Shown here: one piece after another, positions 32,315 through 48,667 of the stretch | How positions within the stretch are numbered: position 1 is the first letter of the stretch | Layout: each line of letters begins with the position of its first letter | Sequence record: PQ471460.1 | Reading direction: 5' to 3' (one strand) | DNA: 64,000 nucleotides | Source: Escherichia phage vB_EcoM_JE01 | Notes under the pieces: generated by a model | The model's input: only the letters and a program-made list of their open reading frames with translations | Database searches by the model: none | Told to the model about the DNA's origin: nothing | Program-made: the position numbers and the translations under genes

Positions 32315-32322
32315 TATAAATA
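32315..32322 (+). promoter_or_regulatory. late promoter TATAAATA immediately after gene 31 (upstream of rIII)
   Basis: exact TATAAATA. Confidence 0.45.
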
Positions 32323-32461
32323 ATAATATGAATTGGGTGTCGGAATAATAAGTTAACCGAACAATTCTATGTGGTAGTCTACAACTGAGAGATCTGTCGA
32401 AAGAAGATGAAATTCAGAAGAACGTGGCTACCGAGTTTTAATCTCTAACGAGAATTTTTAA

Positions 32462-32710
32462 ATGATTAAACAATTACAACACGCTCTCGAACTGCAACGA
32501 AACGCATGGAATAATGGTCACGAAAACTATGGCGCATCTATTGATGTTGAAGCCGAAGCTCTTGAAATCCTGCGTTATTTCAAACATCTGAATCCTGCTC
32601 AAACTGCACTAGCTGCTGAGCTCCAGGAAAAAGATGAACTTAAATATGCTAAGCCTCTGGCTTCTGCTGCACGAAAAGCAGTTCGTCACTTTGTGGTAAC
32701 ACTGAAGTAA
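32462..32710 (+). CDS. rIII: rIII lysis-inhibition accessory protein
   Basis: 82 aa, MIKQLQHALELQRNAWNNGHENYGASIDVEAE… matches T4 rIII. Confidence 0.9.
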   Translation: MIKQLQHALELQRNAWNNGHENYGASIDVEAEALEILRYFKHLNPAQTALAAELQEKDELKYAKPLASAARKAVRHFVVTLK

Positions 32711-32830
32711 TTATGTTGACGAGGTTTATGGTTATCCTGTCGGTAAATATTCAAAACCTAAGTACCCCTTTGAGGGCTTTCGCAGGCAATGCCAATAAGT
32801 CCTGCATTTTCATTTAAAAGAGAATTTATA

Positions 32831-33007
32831 ATGGCAAAACAAGCTAAAGCAAAGAAAGCAGTTGAAAAGAAAGTTGGTGATTCTAAACGCGCTGGTTACA
32901 AGCGTGGGTCGAACTCTCGTATCAATCAAACTGTTGAGAAGATCATGCGCCGAGCACGTGCGGTTCTTCGAGATGATGCTTCTCGTTTTGGTAAGCAGAA
33001 AGCATAA
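32831..33007 (+). CDS. small basic hypothetical protein (30.9-like position)
   Basis: MAKQAKAKKAVEKKVGDSKRAGYKRG…; 58 aa from internal Met of the ORF. Confidence 0.45.
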   Translation: MAKQAKAKKAVEKKVGDSKRAGYKRGSNSRINQTVEKIMRRARAVLRDDASRFGKQKA

Positions 33008-33011
33008 GTTG

Positions 33012-33039
33012 AGGACTCCTTCGGGAGTCCTTTTTTATT
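33012..33039 (+). terminator. rho-independent terminator
   Basis: GGACTCC-TTCG-GGAGTCC followed by TTTTTTATTTT. Confidence 0.8.
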
Positions 33040-33060
33040 TTCCAAAGATTGCACAAAGTT

Positions 33061-33090
33061 GTTTACAGTATGGTTCCTTTGTGATAGTAT
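33061..33090 (+). promoter_or_regulatory. early-type promoter
   Basis: GTTTAC…18 nt…TAGTAT, then AAGGAG SD and ATG. Confidence 0.5.
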
Positions 33091-33117
33091 TATCTTACAC
33101 AAACAAAGGAGAATAAA

Positions 33118-33450
33118 ATGAAAACGATTAATCTGAACGCTGCGGTTAAAACTAAATGCTTCAATGGTAAATATGATGAAACTATGTGGTTCTTAATGGC
33201 AGTTGAAGGTGATATTATTGAAGTAGAAACAACAGAAGGTATGGGAACAGATTTCACCTTTACAATTCAAGTTCATAATTTCTTTACTGGTTGGATTTAT
33301 GAATTGAATACAGTAATCGTTGGAAAAATTGAACAAAATGAATTAGGTGAATGGTATTATGTTACAGCTCGCCAACGTGCAGAACGCTTAATTGAGAAGA
33401 TGAAAAAAGTTGGCAAACTTGACATGCAGCACTGGAAAGTAGTAAAATAA
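33118..33450 (+). CDS. hypothetical protein
   Basis: 110 aa ORF with own promoter and SD. Confidence 0.5.
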   Translation: MKTINLNAAVKTKCFNGKYDETMWFLMAVEGDIIEVETTEGMGTDFTFTIQVHNFFTGWIYELNTVIVGKIEQNELGEWYYVTARQRAERLIEKMKKVGKLDMQHWKVVK

Positions 33451-33452
33451 TT

Positions 33453-33492
33453 GTTTACTTTGGTACAGGATATGATATTATATACCTGTACC
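33453..33492 (+). promoter_or_regulatory. early-type promoter with perfect 8-bp inverted repeat bracketing the -10
   Basis: GTTTAC…TATTAT; GGTACAGG / CCTGTACC. Confidence 0.5.
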
Positions 33493-33505
33493 GCAATTAA
33501 ACATC

Positions 33506-33883
33506 TTGGAGAATAAAATGAACTACATCAACTTTGAACGTAAATATGTTTCTAATGGTATTGCAGGTTCTATTGATACTATCTGCCTTTGGAAACATCA
33601 AAATGGATCAGTATGCGAAATTGAACAGTATATGACTCCTAACTACGTTTATATGCGATTTGAAAATGGCATCACGGTTTCAATCACGAAAGAAGGTTCT
33701 TCTTTTAAAATCGCATTAGATGATGATTTCCGTCAACGCGATTTAGGTACTCATCCTTGCTGGAATGGCGTCAATCGTAAGCTTCTGGTTAAAACTTGGA
33801 TTCGTCATATTCTGAGTAACAGAGCTAAACCTGAGCATCTTGAAGCAATCTTTGATGTAGTTCTTAACGAATTTGATATTTAA
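33506..33883 (+). CDS. hypothetical protein
   Basis: 125 aa ORF with GGAGA SD. Confidence 0.5.
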   Translation: MENKMNYINFERKYVSNGIAGSIDTICLWKHQNGSVCEIEQYMTPNYVYMRFENGITVSITKEGSSFKIALDDDFRQRDLGTHPCWNGVNRKLLVKTWIRHILSNRAKPEHLEAIFDVVLNEFDI

Positions 33884-33891
33884 AATAAAAC

Positions 33892-33908
33892 AGGGGCTTC
33901 GGCCCCTT
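33892..33908 (+). terminator. UUCG-loop hairpin
   Basis: AGGGGC-TTCG-GCCCCT. Confidence 0.4.
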
Positions 33909-33923
33909 ACTGAGGAAAATACT

Positions 33924-34211
33924 ATGTTTATGACTACTTATTTTGATACCCGCAAAAATTTCTGTGAAGTGGTTTTCTCTAAGGCACCTAAAGACCTTCC
34001 TGCTCATTTGCAACCTACCAGTGAATCAATTAAAAACTATGTTAATACAGTCTGCCCTTTAGAGTTTCGTACTGTAAATGGGCGTGATACTCTAGCTATC
34101 GCTAAACTCAATCGTGAAATTGACATTGACCCTTCAATTGCGCGTGAAATTAACATTTCTGACATTGGTGGCGGTAATGTTAAATCGCACGGTTTTCAGA
34201 TGAGGTTCTAA
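33924..34211 (+). CDS. hypothetical protein
   Basis: MFMTTYFDTRKNF…; 95 aa from Met after the hairpin and GAGGAAA SD. Confidence 0.45.
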   Translation: MFMTTYFDTRKNFCEVVFSKAPKDLPAHLQPTSESIKNYVNTVCPLEFRTVNGRDTLAIAKLNREIDIDPSIAREINISDIGGGNVKSHGFQMRF

Positions 34212-34408
34212 TGAAATTCTTTTTAGGTCAAACTGTTGAATTAAAGGGAGTCGGTATACCTGGATTAATTTCTAAGGTTTTGCCTGCATTTAAATGGAGA
34301 GACGTTCAAATAAAAGAAGCTTATATTGTTTCCTGGGTAGATGGAAATGAAGACCTTCGTATGGGTGATGAATTATCTCCTATTTACGGATTAAAGGAAT
34401 TAGTATGA
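34211..34408 (+). CDS. hypothetical protein
   Basis: 65 aa ORF. Confidence 0.4.
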   Translation: MKFFLGQTVELKGVGIPGLISKVLPAFKWRDVQIKEAYIVSWVDGNEDLRMGDELSPIYGLKELV

Positions 34409-34611
34409 ATATAATTAATAAGATTTTTGGAATTCAGTACATTAAGGTCACATATAAAGTAACGTATAAAGGTCCGTATACCGATGAATATGAAGAGCCA
34501 CAAGTTCAGTCTATTATATTAGAAAAGGACCCTAACTGGCCAGTTGAATTTCGTCTTCCTTGCTATGGTCATTGGGCTGATGTTGAAATTATAAGTATTG
34601 AAAATGTCTGA
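34405..34611 (+). CDS. hypothetical protein
   Basis: 68 aa ORF. Confidence 0.4.
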   Translation: MNIINKIFGIQYIKVTYKVTYKGPYTDEYEEPQVQSIILEKDPNWPVEFRLPCYGHWADVEIISIENV

Positions 34612-35062
34612 GCTAGAGATAAGAAGCAATTTTAGATGGCCATCATGTGCATTAAGCAATTTCGCCCAATGGCCTTTCGTTATGGATGGTATCCAATTTG
34701 GAGGTCTAGAAGGATTCCTCCAAGGATGTAAGGTGAAAAATGTTGAACAGCAAAGACGTATATTTGGGTTATCCGGGCTTGCCGCCCAACAAGCTGGAAG
34801 GTCTTATGCTAGAGCTCAGGACCGTGGCACGTTGTTCTGGCTTGGAACTCCGTTTTCAAGATATTCCGAAGCATGGAAAGAATTATACACAAATGCATAT
34901 TTTGAAGCAGCGATCCAAAACAGGGGTTTTCGTGATGCATTACAAGCCTCGAAAGGAAAAGTTTTGAAGCACAGCATGGCTAGTGGTCTAACAAAAGATG
35001 ATACAATACTAACCGAAGCTGAATTTATTGATGTGTTAAACCTATTAAGAGACTCTCTATGA
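34598..35062 (+). CDS. NADAR (YbiA/DUF1768)-like protein, putative ADP-ribose/NAD-derivative hydrolase
   Basis: motif …CALSNFAQWPFVMDGIQFGGLEGFLQGCK… resembles the LSNF…PF…DG…F…E…Q..K NADAR core; assignment from motif memory only. Confidence 0.5.
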   Translation: MKMSELEIRSNFRWPSCALSNFAQWPFVMDGIQFGGLEGFLQGCKVKNVEQQRRIFGLSGLAAQQAGRSYARAQDRGTLFWLGTPFSRYSEAWKELYTNAYFEAAIQNRGFRDALQASKGKVLKHSMASGLTKDDTILTEAEFIDVLNLLRDSL

Positions 35063-35898
35063 AGCCAACTATTTTGACTGATATTGATGGAGTATGTTTA
35101 AGCTGGCAATCAGGCCTTCCTTATTTTGCTCAGAAATATAATCTTCCATTAGAACATATTTTAAAAATGATCCAAGATGAGAAATTTATTTCTCCAGGTA
35201 AGCTCTTTAATTGTGATGAAGAACTTGGCGTCAAGTTAATTGAAAAATACAATCGTTCAGATTTTATTCGTTACTTGTCTCCGTATAAAGATGCCCTGTG
35301 TGTAATTAACAAATTAAAAGAAGATTATAATTTTGTAGCTGTTACAGCATTGGGTGATTCTATTGACGCTCTGTTGAATCGTCAATTTAATTTGAACGCT
35401 CTTTTTCCTGGTGCCTTCTCAGAAGTAATGATGTGTGGTCATGATTCTTCAAAAGAAGAGCTGTTCAAAAAGGCAAAAGAGAAATATAACGTAATTTGTT
35501 ATATTGACGATCTCGCCCATCACTGCGATCATGCGAGTGAAATATTAAATGTTCCAGTTTATTGGATGGCTCGAGGAGAGCGTGACAATATTCCAAAAAC
35601 TGCGCAGCGAGTTTATACATGGAATGATGTAGAAAATAAGCTTTTTTCGCCGAAGGAAAATAAAGAAAGTTTTGATAGTGAAAAAGCTATAAAAGATTTA
35701 ATTGAGAAGATGGTTAAAAACGATTCTTTTCCTTGGAACACTACCTGGAGAACGCCTGGATTTAATCCTTATAATCATCTATATCATCCATATCAGACAC
35801 ATCCGTTTCAGACATGGAACTATATTAAACCTGGTGGCATAGAGTATTTGTATAATAGACCTACTAGTGGTGATAATATTTTTCAAGGAGCATTCTAA
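35059..35898 (+). CDS. HAD-superfamily hydrolase, putative (deoxy)nucleotidase
   Basis: N-terminal LTDIDGV (HAD motif I DxDG), later VTALGDS and YIDDLAHH; aromatic-rich C-terminal extension. Confidence 0.55.
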   Translation: MKPTILTDIDGVCLSWQSGLPYFAQKYNLPLEHILKMIQDEKFISPGKLFNCDEELGVKLIEKYNRSDFIRYLSPYKDALCVINKLKEDYNFVAVTALGDSIDALLNRQFNLNALFPGAFSEVMMCGHDSSKEELFKKAKEKYNVICYIDDLAHHCDHASEILNVPVYWMARGERDNIPKTAQRVYTWNDVENKLFSPKENKESFDSEKAIKDLIEKMVKNDSFPWNTTWRTPGFNPYNHLYHPYQTHPFQTWNYIKPGGIEYLYNRPTSGDNIFQGAF

Positions 35899-36167
35899 TG
35901 TTTGTTGTTCATACTATTTATGAAAATGAAGGTAATACTACACGTGATTACGGTCACGTAAATCAATTTTTTAGATGCAATCCAGAATTCCGTGCTCAAA
36001 AAGACGAACGAATTTTTAAAAAATGTGTAGAACAAGGTTTCATTTACGTCAAGCATTGGATGCAAGGAAATAAAGTTAGAACTACATATCATAAGTCTTT
36101 GCCTGAGCTTAATGATGAATTGATTTATAATAGAGATGTAAATCAAACTCTGAAGGATGAACAATGA
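35898..36167 (+). CDS. hypothetical protein (30.1-like position)
   Basis: 89 aa ORF, ATG overlaps previous stop. Confidence 0.45.
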   Translation: MFVVHTIYENEGNTTRDYGHVNQFFRCNPEFRAQKDERIFKKCVEQGFIYVKHWMQGNKVRTTYHKSLPELNDELIYNRDVNQTLKDEQ

Positions 36168-37627
36168 TTCTTAAAATTCTGAATGAAATAGCATCTATTG
36201 GATCAACTAAACAGAAGCAAGCAATTCTTGAAAAGAATAAAGATAATGAATTGCTTAAACGAGTATATCGTCTGACTTATTCTCGTGGGTTACAGTATTA
36301 TATCAAGAAATGGCCTAAACCTGGTATTGCTACCCAGAGTTTTGGAATGCTGACTATTACCGATATGCTTGACTTCATTGAATTCACATTAGCTACTCGG
36401 AAATTGACTGGAAACGCGGCAATTGAGGAATTAACTGGATATATCACCGATGGTAAAAAGGATGATGTTGAAGTTTTGCGTCGAGTTATGATGCGAGACC
36501 TTGAATGCGGTGCTTCAGTATCTATTGCAAACAAAGTTTGGCCAGGTTTAATTCCTGAACAACCTCAAATGCTGGCAAGTTCTTATGATGAAAAAGGCAT
36601 TAGTAAGAATATCAAGTTTCCAGCTTTTGCGCAGTTAAAAGCAGATGGAGCTCGGTGTTTTGCTGAAGTCAGAGGTGATGAATTAGATGATGTTCGTCTT
36701 TTATCACGAGCTGGCAATGAATACCTAGGATTAGATCTTCTTAAGGAAGAGTTAATCAAAATGACTGCTGAAGCCCGCCAGATTCATCCAGAAGGCGTGT
36801 TAATCGATGGCGAATTGGTATACCATGAGCAAGTTAAAAAGGAACCAGAAGGCCTAGATTTTCTTTTTGATGCTTATCCTGAAATTAGTAAAGCTAAAGA
36901 ATTCGCCAAAGTAGCGGAATCTCGTACTGCTTCTAATGGAATCGCCAATAAATCCTTAAAAGGAACCATTTCCGAAAAAGAAGCCAAATGCATGAAGTTT
37001 CAGGTCTGGGATTATGTCCCGTTGGTAGAAATATACGGTCTTCAGGCGTTTCGTTTAAAATATGATGTACGTTTTTCTAAACTAGAACAAATGACATCAG
37101 GATATGATAAAGTAATTTTAATTGAAAACCAGGTAGTAAATAACCTAGATGAAGCTAAGGTAATTTATAAAAAATATATTGACCAAGGTCTTGAAGGTAT
37201 TATTCTCAAAAATACCGATGGATTGTGGGAAAATGCTCGTTCAAAAAATCTCTATAAATTTAAAGAAGTAATTGATGTTGATTTAAAAATTGTAGGAATT
37301 TATCCTCACCGTAAAGACCCTACTAAAGCGGGTGGATTTATTCTTGAATCAGAGTGTGGAAAAATTAAAGTAAATGCAGGTTCAGGCTTAAAAGATAAAG
37401 CCGGTGTAAAATCGCATGAACTTGACCGTACTCGCATTATGGAAAACCAAAATTATTATATTGGAAAAATTCTAGAGTGCGAATGCAACGGTTGGTTAAA
37501 ATCTGATGGCCGCACTGATTACGTTAAATTATTTCTTCCGATTGCGATTCGTTTACGTGAAGATAAAACTAAAGCTAATACATTCGAGGATGTATTTGGT
37601 GATTTTCATGAGGTAACTGGTCTATGA
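36164..37627 (+). CDS. 30: ATP-dependent DNA ligase
   Basis: MILKILNEIASIGSTKQKQAILEKNKDNELLKRVYRLTYSRG… matches T4 ligase (487 aa); KADG adenylation motif. Confidence 0.96.
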   Translation: MILKILNEIASIGSTKQKQAILEKNKDNELLKRVYRLTYSRGLQYYIKKWPKPGIATQSFGMLTITDMLDFIEFTLATRKLTGNAAIEELTGYITDGKKDDVEVLRRVMMRDLECGASVSIANKVWPGLIPEQPQMLASSYDEKGISKNIKFPAFAQLKADGARCFAEVRGDELDDVRLLSRAGNEYLGLDLLKEELIKMTAEARQIHPEGVLIDGELVYHEQVKKEPEGLDFLFDAYPEISKAKEFAKVAESRTASNGIANKSLKGTISEKEAKCMKFQVWDYVPLVEIYGLQAFRLKYDVRFSKLEQMTSGYDKVILIENQVVNNLDEAKVIYKKYIDQGLEGIILKNTDGLWENARSKNLYKFKEVIDVDLKIVGIYPHRKDPTKAGGFILESECGKIKVNAGSGLKDKAGVKSHELDRTRIMENQNYYIGKILECECNGWLKSDGRTDYVKLFLPIAIRLREDKTKANTFEDVFGDFHEVTGL

Positions 37628-37812
37628 AAGCTTACTTAGAAACAATTGTCGTGGCTCAAAAAGAAGGTGGAGATGTTTCTACTTCTGTATCACAAATCGT
37701 TCTCGAATTTGTAGATGCATATGCTTATAATAAATTTACAGAAACATTTGATGCCTATGAAAAAGGGCCAAAGTTTGAAATATATCGTACTCTCTTACCA
37801 TTAGATTATTAA
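37624..37812 (+). CDS. hypothetical protein
   Basis: 62 aa ORF overlapping ligase stop. Confidence 0.4.
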   Translation: MKAYLETIVVAQKEGGDVSTSVSQIVLEFVDAYAYNKFTETFDAYEKGPKFEIYRTLLPLDY

Positions 37813-37834
37813 AGGCCTTCGGGCCTTTAATTTT
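37811..37834 (+). terminator. rho-independent terminator
   Basis: AAAGGCC-TTCG-GGCCTTT followed by AATTTT. Confidence 0.65.
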
Positions 37835-37842
37835 ATAAATAG
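37835..37842 (+). promoter_or_regulatory. late promoter TATAAATA upstream of first Alt-like gene
   Basis: exact TATAAATA about 20 nt upstream of ATG 37862. Confidence 0.55.
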
Positions 37843-37861
37843 AATAAACACTAGAGAGGAT

Positions 37862-39958
37862 ATGATGGAACTTATTACAGAATTATTTGACGAAGATACT
37901 ACTCTTCCGATTACAAACTTAAATCCAAAGAAGAAAATACCGCAAATTTTTTCAGTTCATGTTGATGACGCAATTGAACAACCAGGCTTTCGTTTATGTA
38001 CCTATACATCTGGAGGTGATACTAATCGCGATTTAAAAATGGGCGATAAAATGATGCATATTGTTCCTTTTACATTAACTGCTAAAGGTTCAATTGCTAA
38101 ATTAAAAGGTCTCGGTCCAAGCCCAATTAATTACATCAATTCAGTTTTTACTGTTGCAATGCAGACGATGCGTCAGTATAAAATTGATGCCTGTATGCTC
38201 CGTATTCTTAAGTCTAAAACTGCTGGTCAAGCTCGACAAATTCAAGTTATTGCTGATAGACTTATCCGTAGTCGTTCAGGTGGCAGATACGTCCTTCTTA
38301 AGGAACTCTGGGATTATGATAAAAAGTATGCATATATTCTTATACATCGCAAAAATGTATCACTAGAAGACATTCCAGGAGTTCCTGAAATTAGTACCGA
38401 GCTCTTTACTAAAGTTGAATCGAAAGTCGGCGATGTTTATATCAATAAAGATACTGGAGCTCAAGTAACTAAAAATGAGGCAATTGCTGCTTCTATTGCA
38501 CAAGAAAATGATAAACGTTCTGACCAAGCTGTAATCGTTAAAGTTAAAATTTCCCGTAGAGCAATTGCACAAAGTCAGTCATTGGAATCTTCTAGATTTG
38601 AAAGTGAATTATTCCAGAAATATGAATCTACCGCAGCTAATTTCAATAAACCTGCTACAGCTCCTTTAATTCCCGAAGCAGAAGAAATGAAGCTTGGAAT
38701 TAATTCATTAGCTTCTAAAACTAAGGCAGCAAAAATTATTGCCGAAGGAACCGCAGATGAACTTCACTATGACTATAAATTCTTTTCAAAAAGTGAGGTT
38801 AATGAAGTTTCTGAAAAAATTAAAGATGTAATTCTCAATGCGATTAAAAATGAACCAACCACTTCAATAAAATGTTTAGAGAAATACGCAGCAGCTGTTA
38901 ATCAATTCTTTGAAGAATATAAAGATAATTGGCTTGATAAACATAATAAAACCCGTAAAGGACAGCCAGATGAAGTCTGGGAAGAAATAACTAAAAATTC
39001 CTGGAACGCAGCAAAAACTAAATTCCTCAAACGAATGATTTATAGCTTTTCTGGAATTGGTGCAGGTCCAATGATTGATATTACTATTGCCCGTGATGGT
39101 TCTAAATATACTCCATCGCAAAAGCGCGGCATTAGAGAGTATTGTGGATCAGGATATACTGACATCAATAATCTTCTTTTAGGCCGCTACAATCCAGAAC
39201 GATATGATGTAATGAGTGAAAAAGAAATTGAATCTGCGATAAATAATTTAGATTCAGCTTTTGAAAATGGTGACCGTATACCAGAAGGCATTACAGTTTA
39301 TCGTGCTCAAAGTATGACTGCTCCTATATACGAAGCGCTAGTTAAAAATAAAGTGTTCTATTTCAGAAATTTTGTATCTACTTCTTTAACTCCTATCATT
39401 TTTGGACGTTTTGGAATTACACATGCTGGCATCGGTCTTTTAGAACCAGAAGCTCGTAATGAATTAACAGTTGATAAAAATGAAGAAGGAATAACTATTA
39501 ATCCAAACGAAATAAGAGCGTATAAAGAAAATCCTGAATACGTTAAAGTTCAAATAGGATGGGCAATTGATGGAGCTCATAAAGTTAATGTTGTATATCC
39601 AGGAAGTCTCGGAATAGCAACAGAAGCTGAAGTTATTCTACCACGCGGATTGATGGTCAAAGTTAATAAAATAACTGATGCTTCTAATAATGACGGAACA
39701 ACATCTAATAATACAAAACTCATTCAAGCTGAAGTTATGACTACGGAAGAACTCACTGAATCGGTAATCTATGATGGAGACCATTTAATGGAAACTGGTG
39801 AAGTAGTTGCAATGACAGATGATATTGAAATAGAAGACAGAGTTGACTTTGCATCATTTGTTTCATCAAATGTTAAACAGAAAGCAGAATCATCTCTTGG
39901 AATTATTGCGTCTTGCATAGATATTACAAACATGCCTTACAAGTTCGTTCAAGGATAA
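37862..39958 (+). CDS. Alt-family ADP-ribosyltransferase paralog 1 (head-packaged)
   Basis: 698 aa; N-terminus MELITELFD…; C-terminal R…STS…E(AEVILPRG) ART signature. Confidence 0.8.
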   Translation: MMELITELFDEDTTLPITNLNPKKKIPQIFSVHVDDAIEQPGFRLCTYTSGGDTNRDLKMGDKMMHIVPFTLTAKGSIAKLKGLGPSPINYINSVFTVAMQTMRQYKIDACMLRILKSKTAGQARQIQVIADRLIRSRSGGRYVLLKELWDYDKKYAYILIHRKNVSLEDIPGVPEISTELFTKVESKVGDVYINKDTGAQVTKNEAIAASIAQENDKRSDQAVIVKVKISRRAIAQSQSLESSRFESELFQKYESTAANFNKPATAPLIPEAEEMKLGINSLASKTKAAKIIAEGTADELHYDYKFFSKSEVNEVSEKIKDVILNAIKNEPTTSIKCLEKYAAAVNQFFEEYKDNWLDKHNKTRKGQPDEVWEEITKNSWNAAKTKFLKRMIYSFSGIGAGPMIDITIARDGSKYTPSQKRGIREYCGSGYTDINNLLLGRYNPERYDVMSEKEIESAINNLDSAFENGDRIPEGITVYRAQSMTAPIYEALVKNKVFYFRNFVSTSLTPIIFGRFGITHAGIGLLEPEARNELTVDKNEEGITINPNEIRAYKENPEYVKVQIGWAIDGAHKVNVVYPGSLGIATEAEVILPRGLMVKVNKITDASNNDGTTSNNTKLIQAEVMTTEELTESVIYDGDHLMETGEVVAMTDDIEIEDRVDFASFVSSNVKQKAESSLGIIASCIDITNMPYKFVQG

Positions 39959-39961
39959 ATC

Positions 39962-42019
39962 ATGGAACTTATTACAGAATTATTTGACGGCGCTTCGGCG
40001 CCGGTTGTTAACTTAAATCCTAAGCATAAAATACCTCAAATTTTTGCTATTCAAGCAGGTGAAGAAAGCGTGCTTCCTGGATTTAGATTTTGTACATACA
40101 CCTCTGGCGGTGATACAAACAAAAACGTTAAGCCAGGCGATAAAATGATGCATATCGTAATGATAGGTGTTAATGAGAAACTATCATTAGTTAAACTTAA
40201 AAACTTGGGTGGAAATCCAATTGGTGTTATTAATGCAGTTTTTGATACTGCTCTTCAAACAATGAAACAGTATAAAATTGACGCATGCCTATTCCGCGTA
40301 CTAAAGAGTAAAACAAACGGTGCAGCTCGTCAAATGCAAGTTATTGCCGACCGTTTAGTACGTACTAAAGGAGCAGGTCGATATGTTCTTTTAAAGGAAA
40401 TCTGGGACTATGATAAGAAATATGCATATATTATGGTTTATCGTAAAAATGCCAATTTAGAAGACATTCCAGGTGTACCTCCTATTTCAACTGAGTTATT
40501 CACAAAGGTTGAATCAAAGGTTGGTGATGTTTATGTAGATGTTAAAACAGGTAATGCTGTTCCTAAAGCTGTTGCTGTTGCTGCTTCTATTGCTTTAGAA
40601 AATGATAAGCGCACGGATCAAGCTGTAATTCAAAAAACTAAAATTAGTCGTCGATTAGCAGCACAAGCTCAATATTCTACTGTCGATGCTTCACTTCAGG
40701 GTGATAGCTTCGCTGCTAAGAAATACCAAGAGTTTGAATCTAAAGTTCCGGTATATAAAGCAGAAGGACCAATGAACTCCGGCGTTATTCAGGTTGGTTC
40801 AAACTTCAGCAAAGGAGCTATCGGTGGTATGAGAAGTGCTTCTCGTTTTAAATCTAATGATTATGAACTAGAAAGCTTCCGAAATCATATTGCATTGGCT
40901 CATGCACGTTTACGTGATCCATCTATCAAGTTACAGAGCGATATAACATATCAAGGTTCTCAAGAATATTTAAAGAATAAAGAATTTTTTGATTATAAAA
41001 CTGATAAAATTTTAAGCGATCTTGCTGACATTAATATTTCTAATAGCTTTGATGTTATTAAGAAAATCGTCAATGATTTAGTTAAAGGTTCTAAAGCCAC
41101 GCCAGATGAAAAGGTAGCTATTGTTCAATTTGTCATGAATGGCGTGTATAAATTGATTAATGAGTCTGCTTCTCAAGCGTATGAATATGCAAGTACTGAA
41201 GTACCCCCAAAAGGATTAACTCAGGCTGAGTCTGATGTAATTGAAGATTATTGTGCAGATTCATATGTTGAAATGAACTCGTTCCTTTTAGGTAAACCGG
41301 ATTCTACCCGTGAAGAATATATGGAACGAGCTATTAAACACATCGAGACAATGGATTCTGCCTTTGCCAAAGGATCAGTTCTTCCTCCAGGAACTACACT
41401 TTACCGTGGGCAAGAAGTTACTTTTAAAACTTTACGTCATAATATTGAAAATAAAATGTTCTATTTCAAGAACTTCGTATCCACATCGCTTAAACCAAAT
41501 ATCTTCGGTGAGTATGGTAAAAACTATATGGCTCTAGATGATTCCAGTACAGTATTTTCTGGTGAAGGAGAAGGTTCAGTTGATGCTGAAGATTTAATGC
41601 ATATGGGTAGTCACTCTGCTTATGCGAATGAAGATGCTGAAACTAGCGTAGGTATGGTAATTAAAGGGGCTGAGCGAATTAAAGTTATCGTTCCAGGTCA
41701 TTTATCAGGATTTCCATCAGAAGCTGAAGTTATTTTACCACGTGGAATTTTGCTGAAGATTAATAAAGTGAGTACGTACATGATGAAAGAAACTGCTTAT
41801 AACAAGTATCTAATCGAAGGCACAATCGTTCCTCCTTCTGAACAATTAGAAGAATCGGTATATGATGGCGACCACCTGATGGAAACTGGTGAAGTTCGTC
41901 CAATGACTGGGTTTAATCAATTCCTTGTAGAAGAATCAAAAGAAGAGGAAAACGAAGTTTCTCAAATCTTGGCTTCTTTGATTAACATCAACGGAATGTC
42001 TAAAAAGTTCAAAATGTAG
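39962..42019 (+). CDS. alt: Alt-family ADP-ribosyltransferase paralog 2
   Basis: 685 aa; N-terminus MELITELFDGASAPVVNLNPKHKIPQIF…; R-S-E motif region (LYRGQ…FVSTSL…SEAEVILPRG). Confidence 0.8.
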   Translation: MELITELFDGASAPVVNLNPKHKIPQIFAIQAGEESVLPGFRFCTYTSGGDTNKNVKPGDKMMHIVMIGVNEKLSLVKLKNLGGNPIGVINAVFDTALQTMKQYKIDACLFRVLKSKTNGAARQMQVIADRLVRTKGAGRYVLLKEIWDYDKKYAYIMVYRKNANLEDIPGVPPISTELFTKVESKVGDVYVDVKTGNAVPKAVAVAASIALENDKRTDQAVIQKTKISRRLAAQAQYSTVDASLQGDSFAAKKYQEFESKVPVYKAEGPMNSGVIQVGSNFSKGAIGGMRSASRFKSNDYELESFRNHIALAHARLRDPSIKLQSDITYQGSQEYLKNKEFFDYKTDKILSDLADINISNSFDVIKKIVNDLVKGSKATPDEKVAIVQFVMNGVYKLINESASQAYEYASTEVPPKGLTQAESDVIEDYCADSYVEMNSFLLGKPDSTREEYMERAIKHIETMDSAFAKGSVLPPGTTLYRGQEVTFKTLRHNIENKMFYFKNFVSTSLKPNIFGEYGKNYMALDDSSTVFSGEGEGSVDAEDLMHMGSHSAYANEDAETSVGMVIKGAERIKVIVPGHLSGFPSEAEVILPRGILLKINKVSTYMMKETAYNKYLIEGTIVPPSEQLEESVYDGDHLMETGEVRPMTGFNQFLVEESKEEENEVSQILASLININGMSKKFKM

Positions 42020-42072
42020 TTTACAAGTCCCTCGTGTTGTGTTATAGTAATCTTACTGACATAACATGAGGA
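42019..42072 (+). promoter_or_regulatory. early promoter plus leader cassette, copy B
   Basis: 52/54 identical to 26326-26379. Confidence 0.6.
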
Positions 42073-42079
42073 ACACAAA

Positions 42080-42370
42080 ATGAAATCTTCTTTGCGCTTT
42101 TTAGGTCAAGAACTTGTAGTTGAAGGCGTTATTCCTGCTGATAACGCCTTTAATGAAGCAGTTTATGATGAATTTATCAAAATTTTTGGAACAGATAAAA
42201 AGTTCGGAATTTTTCCTTCTGAAAATTTTTCAAAGCCAGAGCAGACTGAAAGTATTTTCCAAGGTGTAGTAACAGGTAAATTTGAGTCAGAAGCTCCAGT
42301 AAAAATTGAAGTTTATATTGAAGACAGTTTAGTTGCTTCAGTTTCTGCTTTTATTTCATTCCGTAAATAA
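42080..42370 (+). CDS. hypothetical protein
   Basis: 96 aa ORF driven by cassette copy B. Confidence 0.5.
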   Translation: MKSSLRFLGQELVVEGVIPADNAFNEAVYDEFIKIFGTDKKFGIFPSENFSKPEQTESIFQGVVTGKFESEAPVKIEVYIEDSLVASVSAFISFRK

Positions 42371-42376
42371 AAATAT

Positions 42377-42394
42377 GGGGACCTTTCGGTCCCC
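42377..42394. terminator. bidirectional hairpin terminator between convergent genes
   Basis: GGGGACC-TTTC-GGTCCCC. Confidence 0.65.
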
Positions 42395-42398
42395 ATTG

Positions 42399-43364
42399 TT
42401 ATATTGCTCCTAATATTTTACTTTGCGAATTGACAATTCCCGTCATAGTATTAATGTTTGAAATGCTTCCTGCAGTTCCTCCTAATCTACTAAGTCGTGA
42501 AAGCGAATTAGATAGTCCAGTAACACCTCCACTATTTCCGAGAACGCTTTGAATGCCATTTATAGCAGCAGATTCAAGCCACTCAAGCGCAGCCTGTCTA
42601 TCAACTGACCCAGCCTGCATGACTCTATACGCAAAAGTAACATCAAATGTAGTTATTTGGTTATCTCCATCATATGATAACTCAGGAGCGCTCACTGACA
42701 CTGGAATGCATCCAGTGAACATCACCGCAGTATGAGGTAATCCATTACGAGCATGAAGATTAACCTGAATATCTGCCTCGACATCTTGTGGCAAAGCACG
42801 CAATCCAGTTACTGGGTCTTGAACAGCGTTAACCCAGTCTTGCATTGCACGATAATTACATGCTTCTGAATCCATTCTAAATGAAATAACCAAAGGGTCT
42901 AATTCTCTCCCAGTTATACGAATATTAGGAGAATTATAGTTCCAGTCAGTTTCATAGGATAATCTATTCTCTGGCATTTTTACAGAATATATCATCAATC
43001 CAGATGAGTTATATGCCATGTTAAAGAAGTCAATTAAATATGTACCAACTGTAAATGAGCCCAATAAACTTTGAACTGTACGTTGACTCATGGCACCAAT
43101 AAGATATTTACTAACCCCTGATTTTCTTATCAGTTTTTGTGTGCCAGCAGTAATTAGCGTGGTAATTCCCTGATTAATATCGCCTTGAGTCAATCCTAAC
43201 CATTCTGAATTTAGACCCAAGTTATTATAAGAAAAGTTGCTAATTGAACTTATCAACGAAGAGCTTTTAGTTGATGGAGTTGTCGCAAAAACGCAGCTAA
43301 ACATATTATTACGTTGGAAATCTGCGTTTATTGCTTGATTATTAAATTCCTCTAAAGAATACAT
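42399..43364 (-). CDS. 54: gp54 baseplate tail-tube initiator
   Basis: 321 aa, synteny 54-48-29. Confidence 0.88.
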   Translation of the reverse strand: MYSLEEFNNQAINADFQRNNMFSCVFATTPSTKSSSLISSISNFSYNNLGLNSEWLGLTQGDINQGITTLITAGTQKLIRKSGVSKYLIGAMSQRTVQSLLGSFTVGTYLIDFFNMAYNSSGLMIYSVKMPENRLSYETDWNYNSPNIRITGRELDPLVISFRMDSEACNYRAMQDWVNAVQDPVTGLRALPQDVEADIQVNLHARNGLPHTAVMFTGCIPVSVSAPELSYDGDNQITTFDVTFAYRVMQAGSVDRQAALEWLESAAINGIQSVLGNSGGVTGLSNSLSRLSRLGGTAGSISNINTMTGIVNSQSKILGAI

Positions 43365-44458
43365 TAAAAAGTCCCCGCATATAAAGAAGCACGGTTTAAC
43401 GTGATAATTTCTCTCATAGTAATCTCAAGGGTAAATGTACTAGGGAGGTTTGGAGCAATAGCTAATCCGTTAAAGTTACCATTAGGTGTTTTATCAAATC
43501 TGATACTCTGTATTTGACATGGACCAAATATTTCCGTTTTTCCATCAAACTTAGATGTTGCACCAAAGTTTTTCACCATCCAAATTGTCGGGTTTGAAAC
43601 TACTAGAACGTTAGTTAAACTCGATGTCATTTTCTCAAATAGTGTTTTATTTTTAGCTGCGTCTTCCGGAGATAAAGGTTCAATTAATGTAGAACGATAC
43701 CAATCATCTAAATACCCCTTTATTTCAGCAGCATATTGAGATTTGCCCGTTTCACCATAAGAAAAATAGTTAAAATATTGATAGATATTAATAATAGCCA
43801 TTAAATCTTCTGTGGAACGTGGAGTCAAATCCCATGTGAACACTTTAGTTCTATTTTCAGCACCACCATACATACTTCTGGCTGTCGTATAAATCTGTTC
43901 ATTATTATCAGCCATTATACCTTGCGTTATACTTTCTAGCGCACCAAATACTGCAGTTGAAGCAATATTACTTAGCACACCAGTGGCAGTACCTCCACCT
44001 CTGCTGATAAGACTTTCTTGAACATCATTAAATCTATGTGATGATGTATCAACATCGGATTTAGATCTTGGTAAAAGAATATTTGCAACAGGTGCTTTAC
44101 TTATTGTTCCTGAATTATTATCTGATATTAATCCATTTGATAGTTTTGATACTGTACTACTAATAGTGTTTCTGGCTGTACGTAAAATACTCGAAGATGA
44201 AGAAGAGTAGTTAGATCTCATCGATCTAAGACTTCCAGAATCCCTAGATGACATATTGTATGCAGTAAATAATAATCCATTCTTATATAGATCTGTTACC
44301 TGGAAGTCCCCTGTAGTGTCATTACCACTAGCACGCCCAGTTGGAAACTGGGCAGTGTATGTTTTAGTTGCTACTTCTGATTTAGTACTCTGTCCGGCTG
44401 AAATTTTCTCACCGGACTTTTTAATTAAATCAGCAGTTATTTCTTTAACAATTGCCAT
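43364..44458 (-). CDS. 48: gp48 baseplate tail-tube cap
   Basis: 364 aa, same length as T4 gp48. Confidence 0.88.
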   Translation of the reverse strand: MAIVKEITADLIKKSGEKISAGQSTKSEVATKTYTAQFPTGRASGNDTTGDFQVTDLYKNGLLFTAYNMSSRDSGSLRSMRSNYSSSSSSILRTARNTISSTVSKLSNGLISDNNSGTISKAPVANILLPRSKSDVDTSSHRFNDVQESLISRGGGTATGVLSNIASTAVFGALESITQGIMADNNEQIYTTARSMYGGAENRTKVFTWDLTPRSTEDLMAIINIYQYFNYFSYGETGKSQYAAEIKGYLDDWYRSTLIEPLSPEDAAKNKTLFEKMTSSLTNVLVVSNPTIWMVKNFGATSKFDGKTEIFGPCQIQSIRFDKTPNGNFNGLAIAPNLPSTFTLEITMREIITLNRASLYAGTF

Positions 44459-44466
44459 ATTATTCC

Positions 44467-46239
44467 TTAATTAACTCCAGTCGCATCAAATACACCAGGA
44501 GCAGTCGTGCTCGTTACGGGTGTCATATTATGAACGACAGTATTTTTCTTAACAACATTATTAGTATTATTGATCGAAGGAGATGCTTGTTGAACAGGAG
44601 CTTGTTGTGCTTTGTTCTTTTCAATAACCTGGACTTGTTTTGCTTCTGGCGATTTAGCAGAAGTTTCAGGTTTGGCATTAGGCTGATTTTTCTTGAGCTC
44701 TTGATAAGTAGCATCAATTTTAGAAAATCTAGCAGCAAGCTCTTTTTTAACTGCCGGTGAATTATTTAAATCCGGATCATCCATCCGTTTTTTAAGGTCT
44801 TCATAGGCAGCTTCAACTGATTTAACTGTTGAGTCTTTACTCATATCAGCTGAATCGGCATATTGATCAAAACGATTCATAGCAGCACGAGCTTCATTAG
44901 CTTTCATTAAAGCAATTTTAGCTTCCTCCGGAGAAAGTTGCTTTAATTTTTCTTCTTCCTCTGCCCTCTCTTCATCAGTCGTTAGTGCTTCTTTATTATC
45001 AACACCACGAATCCAGTTAGATGCACGAGTTTTCCAGTTCGCAATTTTGTCTAGTCCTTTTGCTATCGGACCAAGTTCTCCATTCATTCTTTTATATTGA
45101 TAGTTTGCAACTTTTTCTTGGTCTTCTTTGTTAAGAGAAGCATTTGTAGTATTTTGGAAATTTTCTAGTGCTCTTCCTTCTACTTCATCAGCGGTATCCT
45201 TCATGCCAGGAATGACTCGAAGAATTGCAGCAGATAATTTAGCCATACCTAATTGAATAAGCTCTCCTAAATTAAAAAGAACCTTTCCAAGCCCTTCTAC
45301 AATAGCTACAGTCAAACCACCCCAGTCTCCCGCTTCCCAGAATTTTTTAATTTCATCGATAGAACTAAAGATGCTTTGTAATAAAGGACCCCATGTTCCG
45401 GTTTCGCTAGAGAATTTAGTAAAGTCTGTACTAAACAAATCCCAAGCTTGCGAAAATTTATCTGACCAATATTTAAAGTGAACCATCAGCAGGTCTATTC
45501 CGACAACAACAGCCAATATCATTGCTGTCATTTTAGCAGCTTCAATAGCAGCACTGACGGTATACTTAAATAACATGCTTGATATTTTATCAGTAATTGA
45601 AATGGATTTCTTAAATCCAAAATCAACAGTCTTTGTTAATTTATCTAAAGCTTGAGATAATTTTAAGTTAAATGCGTCTTTTTTCTGTTTTTCTTCTGGC
45701 GATTCTTGTTTGGGCTCAACTGGCTGAGGGGTAGGGAAAAAATCAGCATCAGGATCATTATTAACTGCTTCAGGAGCTGGTAATAAAGGACCCACAGATT
45801 CAGCTGTATCGTCCTCAACAACTTTAACAGGAATAGCGCTTTCAACTGTGGCTAAACTAGTTCCAGTCTGTTGAATTCCAGCTGTCTGAATTTTTTGCTC
45901 TAGTAAACTTGTTAATTTATCTAATTTGCTCCCGAGTGATTCACCAATTTCTTTATTAATATTGTTGCCAATTTCGACAGTTTCAGCAATTAACTCAGAA
46001 CCAGCAGTAGTATCACTCACTGCGCTTTCTACGTTGTCAATTGCTCCAATTATTTCATTCGATTTTTCTTCGACAGTTTGAGCAATTAATTCAGAAGCAG
46101 CTTGAGCATCATCCAATTTCGTAGATATATCGTTAAGTCCAGATAAAGTGTTAGAAGCGGATTTAGCCGCTTCCTGTGTTGGTTTATTATCTGAAATAAC
46201 TTTTCTACGCATCGTTTGCATTTCTTGTGGCTTTTTCAT
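44467..46239 (-). CDS. 29: gp29 tail length tape-measure / baseplate hub
   Basis: 590 aa, same length as T4 gp29. Confidence 0.88.
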   Translation of the reverse strand: MKKPQEMQTMRRKVISDNKPTQEAAKSASNTLSGLNDISTKLDDAQAASELIAQTVEEKSNEIIGAIDNVESAVSDTTAGSELIAETVEIGNNINKEIGESLGSKLDKLTSLLEQKIQTAGIQQTGTSLATVESAIPVKVVEDDTAESVGPLLPAPEAVNNDPDADFFPTPQPVEPKQESPEEKQKKDAFNLKLSQALDKLTKTVDFGFKKSISITDKISSMLFKYTVSAAIEAAKMTAMILAVVVGIDLLMVHFKYWSDKFSQAWDLFSTDFTKFSSETGTWGPLLQSIFSSIDEIKKFWEAGDWGGLTVAIVEGLGKVLFNLGELIQLGMAKLSAAILRVIPGMKDTADEVEGRALENFQNTTNASLNKEDQEKVANYQYKRMNGELGPIAKGLDKIANWKTRASNWIRGVDNKEALTTDEERAEEEEKLKQLSPEEAKIALMKANEARAAMNRFDQYADSADMSKDSTVKSVEAAYEDLKKRMDDPDLNNSPAVKKELAARFSKIDATYQELKKNQPNAKPETSAKSPEAKQVQVIEKNKAQQAPVQQASPSINNTNNVVKKNTVVHNMTPVTSTTAPGVFDATGVN

Positions 46240-46769
46240 TCAAATAATCCAATAATATTGCCAATTCCGGTTATTGGACCATTAGGGCCAGGAATTGCTA
46301 AAGTTGTAAAAATATCATTTGCCCATTTTAAAACGAATGCTGGCATCTCAAGAAAATTAATTTCTTTAACTTCATCATTGACCTTAAGCAAGCACTTGGA
46401 TAACATATCGCTCACCGTTAAAAATTGTTCAAATTTTCCAGGAGGTCTAAAATAAAATGTATTTCCTTGGTATTGAAATTCCAATCTTTGGCATACATAA
46501 ACATCATTAATGTCATAAGTATAACCATCTATTTCTTTACGAGATTTAATCTTTCCATTAAATTCCAATAAATGAATAGAAACGAAATCAACTTCTGCCG
46601 GTGATAAATTTGGACAAATAGAATCGATCAAAAGTTTTAAATTTTCATCGGGTCCTTTAACATCTTTTAAAATGTTATAATGTTTAAGACCCATTTTAGG
46701 AATAGAAACTTCTTTATTGCTTATTGGAAGAACTACTTTCTTCAGTGGTAGTATCAGATTTAAATTCAT
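46236..46769 (-). CDS. 28: gp28 baseplate hub distal subunit
   Basis: 177 aa. Confidence 0.85.
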
Positions 46770-47889
46770 TTTTAACCTTAACTGGGTCTATTGTTTCCAG
46801 TTTCGTTGCATTAGTGAACATATATAGATGAGTTACTGAATTATTATTGGATAATTCATGGATGACTTCATCAACGTAAAATTCTGTTTTAAATTGGTTT
46901 TTACTATCATTAAAAATAATTTTAACGCCAGGAGTCAAGTTAAAATTACCGACAGTAGAACATTTAGCATAGCCGTCATATTGTGCCATAGTTTGAAGAC
47001 GAATAGCTTCTTCATATCCATTCCTATAAGTCATTTCAGAATAAGCACCTGACCTTGACACTACAATAGAGTTTTCGCCTTTTCCTGTAGTAATCATTGG
47101 CAATGAAGAATCTAAAAATGAATGCGCGTAGATAGTAGCGTTTTTCATTGGGTCACGTTTGTGAGGATTCGATTTAGTCAACCAAACGAAATCATATGCT
47201 AATGGATATTTTAATTCTTGGATGAATTGACCTATTAAAGATGGCTCACCGACAATCATTGGATACGGTTCTTGATTTATCATCATATCATAGTCCATCA
47301 TGTTAACTCCCATGATGTCTTGCCATACAAATACAAATTTGTCACTTCCTACAGCTAGAGCAACTTCTCTGACATATGACAAATAGTTTTCAAATGTACT
47401 AGTCCATGGAATATCAGGAACATAAGCATTTATAGCATTTATCGCTGGAGTTAATAGTGTGCGATCTTGATAAATGACACCAAGCATTTCTTTTATAGAT
47501 TCACCTGCATCAGGGAAAAACGGTCTGCCAAATTTAAGATTTTCTATAGAATGAATAGTTCCCAATTCAATAGCAATGATGTTATCACCTTTTGAATCTA
47601 CTGACACTGAAAAATGCTTACATCCATAAATTCTTGTTTTAACATTATTAATATCGTTTGCATTAGCTACAGAAATCTGAATTATTTCATTTCCATCCAT
47701 TTTTGTATGGATATTTTTAGAATCATAAAACTGCAACATTCCTTCATTTCGGCCATAAAGAGAATCCCGCATAGTTAATGTGGTAATAGTAGCAGCTAAT
47801 TCAACAAATCTATTATTACTCCAAGCGTCGTAGCTATCAAACAATTTAACGCTGAGATTTGGATATCCTGGGCGTTGCAACATACTCAT
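46714..47889 (-). CDS. 27: gp27 baseplate hub subunit
   Basis: 391 aa. Confidence 0.88.
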
Positions 47890-48638
47890 TATTGTTTATC
47901 CTTCTCAATCAGTTTTAATACGAATCCGCGCTCGGCAGGAATCATTTTCATTATTGAATTTAAGCTATAATTACTTTTTACAAGTGTGTGATTAATTTGA
48001 TAAAAAGTAAATATCTCATCTGGGTTAACTAATAGCTTAAACACATCTACTATATCAGTGTATTTTTTTACATACTTATCACAGCATGACATGTGTAGCG
48101 TTAAATTAATAGGATTCATTGCATCGAGAATTTTTTCTAATGTTTCTATCTCGATGGCGTCAACAAGCTCTATTTGACTTGATTCGCTAATTTCCTTCCA
48201 ATCATACCATGTTTCATCTACTTGAACAGAATGAATATTTTCAGTAATCATCTTTGCTTTATTTTCATAAAACTCAGAAGGAAACTTTAATTTAATTTTA
48301 ACATTAGCTACATCAAAAACAGGTTCCTTTAATTCTTTTTGATATATTTCAAATGGAACTGTCTTTTCTTTTTTACATTTTGGACATACAAATGTGACCG
48401 GTACTTTAGTTTTACCTATTGACCCTACAAATACCTGCAAAAATATAAATGGTTGCCAAGTCTTCGGATAGTCTCCAAAATAATCAGCAATTAAATCAGC
48501 AATTATTTCTTTTTGTTCTTGTGGTGACCGATGTTCTATATCGTTTCGAACTAACAAAAAATCTCGATAATCTTCTACCGTAAATGGTTTAAAACGATGA
48601 ACACCATCTGGTAATTTACAACGAATAATGTTTGCCAT
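47889..48638 (-). CDS. 51: gp51 baseplate hub assembly catalyst
   Basis: 249 aa. Confidence 0.85.
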
Positions 48639-48655
48639 AGATGCTCCTTTTATTC

Positions 48656-48667
48656 TATTTATAAATA
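48656..48667. promoter_or_regulatory. overlapping divergent late promoters for gene 51 (-) and gene 26 (+)
   Basis: TATTTATAAATA contains TATAAATA on both strands. Confidence 0.55.

Follow-up and report, generated by a model that had tools for sequence, protein, structure and literature searches.

Tandem genes for predicted Alt-family ADP-ribosyltransferases, alt and alt2, in Escherichia phage vB_EcoM_JE01 and the broken second gene of T4

Alt is the textbook case of a phage enzyme injected ready-made, rewiring the host before phage genes are read, and knowledge of it comes mostly from T4. According to the literature, about 40 copies of T4 Alt are carried per head and injected with the DNA, and the protein ADP-ribosylates RNA polymerase and other proteins, regulates MazF, and is non-essential. 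Its expression is late (PMC9697503), and the prohead protease, gp21, cuts it after ITE-6 and LTE-619 (PMC5694885). In the T4 record, two small neighboring genes, alt.-1 and alt.-2, are described as deriving from an old duplication of the beginning of alt. Here we analyze the corresponding locus in a 64,000-nt stretch of Escherichia phage vB_EcoM_JE01 (PQ471460.1; hereafter the window, at its full length), where two adjacent open reading frames (ORFs), ORF1 upstream and ORF2 downstream, are best explained as two paralogous Alt-family ADP-ribosyltransferases, Alt and Alt2. We put the probability of this explanation as a whole at about 0.8. The gene pair is already known and annotated rather than new, because it is present in many phage records, the annotation of BASEL phage Bas37 (KarlGJung, MZ501089) lists an 'ADP-ribosyltransferase Alt' and an 'ADP-ribosyltransferase Alt2', and alt duplications were remarked on in print in 2006 (PMC1524935) and 2014 (PMC4177764). 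In the literature searched, mentions of a second Alt (as Alt2 or altB) were confined to remarks in genome descriptions.

The ORF list gave ORF1 as 37862..39958 on the + strand, with 698 amino acids (aa) beginning MMELITELFD. Translation likely starts at the second ATG, 37865, rather than at 37862, because the ribosome-binding site GAGG, which ends at 37859, is better spaced from it (5 nt) and the annotated start of alt in T4 and T2 is the same. An initial annotation made from the sequence had recognized two adjacent Alt-family ORFs with a shared MELITELFD N-terminus, which we confirmed with the length of ORF1 corrected to 697 aa. The pairwise alignment it had proposed gave 41% identity over the full length (BLASTP E = 4e-160), and the resemblance is therefore not chance. 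Both proteins matched PHROG 802, 'Alt-like RNA polymerase ADP-ribosyltransferase', and Pfam PF03496, ADPrib_exo_Tox (1.8e-37 for ORF1 and 2.6e-20 for ORF2), and PF26846 was present on all full-length homologs in precomputed Pfam annotation. The R / S-T-S / E-x-E signatures were located where the initial annotation had placed them, as YRAQ (R480), FVSTS (STS 505-507), and EAEVILPRG (EAE 587-589; E587 and E589) in ORF1 and as YRGQ (R482), FVSTS (STS 507-509), and EAEVILPRG (EAE 587-589; E587 and E589) in ORF2. Loss of catalytic residues in one copy had been raised as a possible refutation; the residues were intact in both, their columns were invariant in alignments of 19-20 diverse homologs, and the R and ExE aligned with those of CDTa. 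Both ORFs thus combined an R-S-E-type ADPrib_exo_Tox domain and intact catalytic motifs with an Alt N-domain, gp21 motifs, and the late promoter and locus position of the family. We infer arginine-specific mono-ADP-ribosyltransferase activity for Alt and Alt2. Relative to T2, the ratio of nonsynonymous to synonymous substitution rates (dN/dS) was 0.047 for alt and 0.055 for alt2, and 0.00-0.04 in the ADP-ribosyltransferase (ART) domains, values that indicate strong purifying selection on both.

Alignment to T4 identified each copy. ORF1 is by this evidence alt itself, because it occupies the same position, its first 245 residues were identical to those of T4 Alt but for one substitution, and its last 65, the C-terminal propeptide, shared 92% identity. 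ORF2 aligned as the intact form of the T4 fragments: T4 alt.-1 covers ORF2 residues 1-54 and then runs on in a shifted frame, and alt.-2 covers residues 62-117 before its tail continues into sequence just beyond the ORF2 stop. The 1,699-bp segment absent from T4, spanning ORF2 codons 114-680, was bounded using blastn and a junction alignment against NC_000866 (Table 1), and the T4 deletion junction lay in imperfect direct repeats of 9 bp, CTAAAGAGT (40301-40309) and CTAAAAAGT (42000-42008). Aligned in this way, T4 alt.-1 and alt.-2 are what survives of a once full-length paralog, contrary to the description in the T4 record. The initial annotation had considered that the upstream copy might be an extra gene or an expansion specific to this phage. 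Neither held, as the upstream copy is alt, the downstream one is the copy lost by T4, and the pair is widespread.

At least 351 phage records contained the 4.8-kb stretch nearly full-length, with identity of ≥90% in almost all of them, and ORF2 was found at ≥95% protein identity in 396 records. A 121-bp probe laid over the T4 deletion junction matched end to end in 91/497 records and in two halves in the remainder, which therefore carry an intact alt2. Across these records, the alt and alt2 pair is the majority state in Tequatrovirus. T2 encodes the same pair of 697 and 685 aa, Yersinia phage PYPS2T combines an alt of the T4 type with an unbroken alt2, and in Dhakavirus IME08 the slot is filled by altA and altB.

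Models and alignments gave both proteins the same four-part plan: a propeptide and alpha/beta N-domain to residue ~240, an all-helical central region to ~415-470, an ART domain to ~625, and an acidic tail. The models were built using AlphaFold from 19-20 sequences with a mean predicted local distance difference test score (pLDDT) of 72-74, and in structure comparison the ART fold was matched confidently in the models of both window proteins. The PDB held no solved Alt structure, and the best sequence matches there were to CDTa and iota Ia over short stretches (E ~1e-3 to 1e-4). The delivery part would consist of the 6-residue propeptide, the Alt N-domain, and the acidic C-propeptide, and the effector part of the helical central region and the C3/iota-type ART domain. 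Both proteins retained MELITE and an L-x-E site (LTE-632 in ORF1 and LEE-631 in ORF2) immediately before YDGDxLMETGE. Predicted mature masses after cleavage at these sites were 70.1 kDa for Alt and 69.2 kDa for Alt2, and the same cuts applied to T4 Alt gave 68.2 kDa, its published mature mass.

The YDGDxLMETGE block itself (39761-39793 in ORF1 and 41855-41884 in ORF2) was invariant in all homologs examined, though T4 removes that piece from mature Alt. Such conservation in a removed segment suggests that the block may serve in targeting, tethering, or auto-inhibition. All proteins recovered in the search with the Alt N-domain were either Alt-sized or short fragments; the domain formed 71 clusters among 1.84 billion representatives, always N-terminal and almost always alongside an ART domain. 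We considered whether it could be a general delivery module for other cargo and rejected this, given the 71 representative clusters, nearly all with ART. Four proteins (P0179, P0183, P0184, and P0187), one of them 1,142 aa long, resembled Alt at the N-terminus (E 3e-10 to 2e-6) but had no Pfam ART match, and may carry an alternative cargo on the Alt N-domain or an ART domain too diverged for detection.

Identity was unevenly distributed along the proteins. Between ORF1 and ORF2 it was 67% in the N-domain, 18% in the central region, and 36% in the ART domain. The earlier claim that the central regions differ was accurate as far as it went, and the divergence extends beyond the center into the ART domain, while the N-terminal 240 aa are the better conserved part. 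ORF1 compared with T4 Alt shared 100% of the N-domain, 31% of the central region, and 65% of the ART domain, while ORF2 and the T4 Alt N-domain were 67% identical. Against IME08, the corresponding values were 47%, 66%, and 96% for ORF1 with AltA, and 46%, 47%, and 56% for ORF2 with AltB. At the DNA level, ORF1 was 95-98% identical to T4 outside and 40-73% within ~38600 to ~39730, with a sharp drop and then recovery, and identity to IME08 altA was 84-98% across the ART domain with just ~40-60% in the flanking N-domain DNA. The evidence points to an effector cassette that has been exchanged between genera while the N-domain and C-propeptide stayed constant, because the ART domain is 96% identical to that of Dhakavirus AltA while the N-domain is that of T4. 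N-domains were 66-67% identical within one genome vs 42-47% between positional orthologs across genera, a pattern that would fit gene conversion or co-evolution with a phage-specific head partner. Three metagenomic proteins (P0004, P0006, and P0007) joined an ORF1-type N-terminus to an ORF2-type body, with breakpoints at residues ~105, ~195, and ~225. Junctions of this kind are the pattern expected from unequal crossing-over between tandem N-domains and could equally be assembly collapses; as these were singletons from automated assemblies, we set them aside as evidence.

A T4-type late promoter, TATAAATA, precedes ORF1 only, and the same element is in the same place in T4. An exact-match scan of 32315-48660 found its sole + strand copy at 37834-37841, which bears out the single late promoter of the initial annotation and puts the 37835 start of its feature on the second base of the octamer. 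The ORF2 ATG lies 3 nt downstream of the ORF1 TAA, and its ribosome-binding site, AAGGA, is inside the end of ORF1. We propose that alt and alt2 would be transcribed late as one message from TATAAATA, with translation of alt2 probably coupled to that of alt. By analogy with T4 Alt, both proteins would be incorporated in the prohead core and trimmed by gp21 following ITE-6 and, near the C-terminus, following LTE-632 in Alt or LEE-631 in Alt2, to ~70 and ~69 kDa. The trimmed enzymes would remain in the head, enter the cell with the DNA, and ADP-ribosylate host proteins ahead of any phage gene expression. Packaging and processing of both Alt and Alt2 are what we infer from this analogy, and the architecture fits the head-packaged, injected enzymes suggested in the initial annotation through the shared delivery motifs and the late promoter.

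Functional information on the pair came from HIDEN-SEQ, a 2025 transposon screen preprint (10.1101/2025.11.20.689424) that included Bas37, whose proteins are 98-99% identical to those of the window. The preprint reports that T4 Alt is needed for evasion of Mokosh type I and that Bas37 Alt is conditionally essential there too, but 'weaker'; with ectopic expression, T4 Alt complemented the Mokosh type I defect and Bas37 Alt did not. Its main text does not mention Alt2, and the values that follow are from its supplementary tables. In the Bas37 reference library on K-12, 164/179 TA sites were hit in Alt (mean 203.6, non-essential) and 116/164 in Alt2 (mean 44.5, 'Intermediate'). Log2 fold changes (log2FC) for Alt and Alt2 were 0.01 and 0.11 on CFT073, -0.06 and 0.19 on CFE299, -0.24 and 0.00 on CFE303, and -1.56 (adj p 0) and +0.12 on CFE331. 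In the last table, taken as Mokosh type I, Alt was at -7.74 and Alt2 at +1.32 (adj p 0 for each). Because insertions in the two genes shift in opposite directions in this last table, Alt and Alt2 are not redundant as far as the screen reports. The second target set proposed in the initial annotation gains indirect experimental support from this difference in behavior. Since the effector parts are very different, Alt and Alt2 most likely act on different host targets.

Several points weigh against this interpretation. Literature searches turned up neither virion proteomics nor mapping of the N- and C-termini for Alt2 or a non-T4 Alt allele; the case for packaging and processing is built on conserved motifs, and no substrate has been identified for the window-type Alt or for Alt2. 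The AlphaFold models are of moderate quality, and the C-terminal propeptide is poorly modeled, that of ORF2 especially. In the screen, the Mokosh type I label of the last table was assigned from sheet order, differing control means, and agreement with the Supplementary Discussion, not from a header, and the fewer alt2 insertions could stem from toxicity of truncated proteins and not from a lost function.

If the two genes were functionally redundant copies, they would raise the dose of one activity, on the RNA polymerase alpha subunit and the other T4 Alt targets. They have the same catalytic motifs and architecture, stand behind one promoter, and are predicted to be delivered by the same route, which would suit this, as would the dispensability of each gene alone on E. 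coli K-12 in the Bas37 library. Redundancy is nevertheless very unlikely given central and catalytic regions only 18% and 36% identical between Alt and Alt2, a separate positional ortholog for each cassette in another genus, and screen tables in which Bas37 needs Alt vs Mokosh type I despite having Alt2, the genes shift oppositely, and baseline fitness differs. That one copy is an inactive relic retained as a structural or packaging protein is scarcely credible. T4 tolerates the loss of alt2, and alt is non-essential in T4 and, in the screen, in Bas37, but R, S-T-S, and E-x-E are intact and invariant, the models of both proteins match the ART fold confidently, and dN/dS is ~0.05 in both genes and 0.00-0.04 in the ART domains.

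It is also unlikely, though less so, that Alt2 is made late but not delivered in the virion, acting instead in the producing cell or competing with or regulating the packaging of Alt. There is no direct evidence for Alt2 in virions, and enrichment of alt2 insertions under Mokosh selection in the supplementary tables fits a protein that lowers the amount of packaged Alt. On the other hand, Alt2 retains MELITE, the N-domain, L-x-E, and YDGDxLMETGE, all under purifying selection, and has an intact catalytic domain; a role purely as a competitor would not readily account for conservation of this kind.

Returning to Alt and Alt2 as two delivered enzymes, a tentative extension is that the alt locus is a two-slot system of pre-loaded anti-defense effectors. 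A constant delivery scaffold would co-evolve with the head while cassettes are swapped even from one genus to another, the limited places in the prohead core would be contested by Alt and Alt2, and Alt2 would neutralize another host factor. Under this competition model, loss of alt2 would raise the injected dose of Alt, so that under Mokosh type I alt2 insertions would be enriched and alt insertions eliminated, as in the Bas37 tables; competition for packaging places is one reading of the opposite signs in the screen. If true, the model might help explain how the T4 lineage does without alt2.

Gene order around the pair was that of T4: 30 (ligase), alt.1, alt, [alt.-1, alt.-2], and alt.-3, then convergent 54, 48, and 29 (Table 1). 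PF24647, matched by the alt.1 homolog, is a recent Pfam family, 'Phage blade protein'. The GC-rich hairpin between alt.1 and the late promoter is terminator-like and may close the upstream early/middle unit; the consensus terminator scan made no call at 37812..37833. We looked for a separate internal promoter for alt2 and rejected it, as there was no second exact TATAAATA and the one-mismatch sites were intragenic and not outstanding. The sole MotA-box-like middle-promoter match, TGCTTCA-N11-TAGCTT at 40687-40720 (+), was within alt2 and probably a chance occurrence. Past the alt2 stop, the candidate early promoter was the best sigma-70-type match of the region (10/12 with a TG extension). The alt.-3 homolog differs from T4 Alt.-3 by one residue. 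Mutants of T4 alt.-3 with C-terminal extensions escape CmdTAC defense (PMC11618068), and in the supplementary tables of the HIDEN-SEQ preprint, insertions in the Bas37 homolog, bas37_0031, were depleted on E. coli CFT073 (log2FC -2.70, adj p 0.020).

Table 1 Coordinates of features at the alt and alt2 locus in the window.
Feature	Position	Strand	Description
alt.1 homolog	37624..37812	+	62 aa; Pfam PF24647 Phage_blade 1e-29; placed as alt.1 is in T4; final gene ahead of the alt unit
GC-rich hairpin	37812..37833	+	AAGGCC-TTCG-GGCCTT then AATTTT; read from sequence; conserved in T4
Late promoter TATAAATA	37834-37841	+	T4-type; precedes ORF1 only
alt (ORF1, upstream copy)	37865..39958	+	697 aa; alternative opening one codon earlier, 37862; positional ortholog of T4 alt
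ORF1 N-terminal propeptide	37865..37882	+	MELITE; prohead-protease motif ITE-6; identical to T4 Alt
ORF1 Alt-specific N-domain	37883..38599	+	aa 7-245; alpha/beta; pLDDT ~70-88
ORF1 variable effector cassette	38600..39730	+	Helical central aa 246-415 and ART aa 416-625; DNA identity to T4 40-73% inside
ORF1 catalytic codons	R480 39302-39304; STS 39377-39385; EAE 39623-39631	+	Motif location
ORF1 L-T-E (E632)	39752..39760	+	Predicted C-terminal gp21 site; same context as T4 LTE-619
ORF1 C-terminal propeptide	39761..39955	+	65 aa; acidic; opens with YDGDxLMETGE
alt2 (ORF2, downstream copy)	39962..42019	+	685 aa; begins MELITELFD
Segment absent from T4	40301..41999	+	1,699 bp; ORF2 codons 114-680
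ORF2 catalytic codons	R482 41405-41407; STS 41480-41488; EAE 41720-41728	+	Motif location
ORF2 cleavage motif LEE (631)	41846-41854	+	
ORF2 C-propeptide	41855-42016	+	
T4-early-type promoter-like site	42019..42048	+	GTTTACA-N17-TATAGT; directly past the alt2 stop; consensus match only
alt.-3 homolog	42080..42370	+	96 aa; DUF5498, Pfam 5.4e-64; last gene of the + strand block
Bidirectional hairpin terminator	42375..42396	both	Between alt.-3 and convergent gene 54; called on both strands (terminator scan)

The practical import of these results is modest, as a known and annotated pair was recognized. The closest described system is that of Bas37, where Alt (bas37_0033) and Alt2 (bas37_0032) are the same genes in the same order and context, with 693/698 (99.3%) and 672/685 (98.1%) residues identical to those of the window. 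The differences amount to 5 substitutions in Alt, the mature part of which (aa 34-640) is identical, and 13 in Alt2, and nothing structural. In Dhakavirus IME08 (JS98 group), AltA and AltB are likewise encoded in tandem, with alt.1 and alt.-3 on either side, and AltB is the ortholog of Alt2.

Among more distant ADP-ribosyltransferases, Vis, C3bot, iota Ia, CDTa, and VIP2 have the ART fold in common with the window proteins at 15-23% sequence identity, but the C3-like and binary toxins are secreted bacterial toxins without an Alt N-domain, phage-protease propeptides, or capsid delivery, whereas the context in the window is a phage late operon and not a toxin locus. The window proteins would work chemically like these toxins and are not members of the toxin families. 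ModA and ModB of T4 are single-domain proteins of ~200 aa that are produced early in infection. The window proteins, at 697 and 685 aa with three domains and a late promoter, are not of this type. ModA and ModB belong to the same ART clade and are found in the same phages, but they are not packaged or injected (PMC5512222).

T4 Alt (gpAlt, NP_049811) resembles the window Alt in position, promoter, and gp21 sites and differs from it in carrying a different effector allele, while the gene represented by T4 alt.-1 and alt.-2 (NP_049810, NP_049809) is broken by the deletion and a frameshift where alt2 of the window is intact. In the recent screening, as far as its tables extend, Alt alleles differ in defeating Mokosh type I and Alt2 behaves unlike Alt. 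T4, the phage from which Alt is mostly known, is a deletion variant that lacks Alt2 and carries a single Alt allele out of at least two, and most of its relatives, T2 included, encode and perhaps inject two different enzymes.

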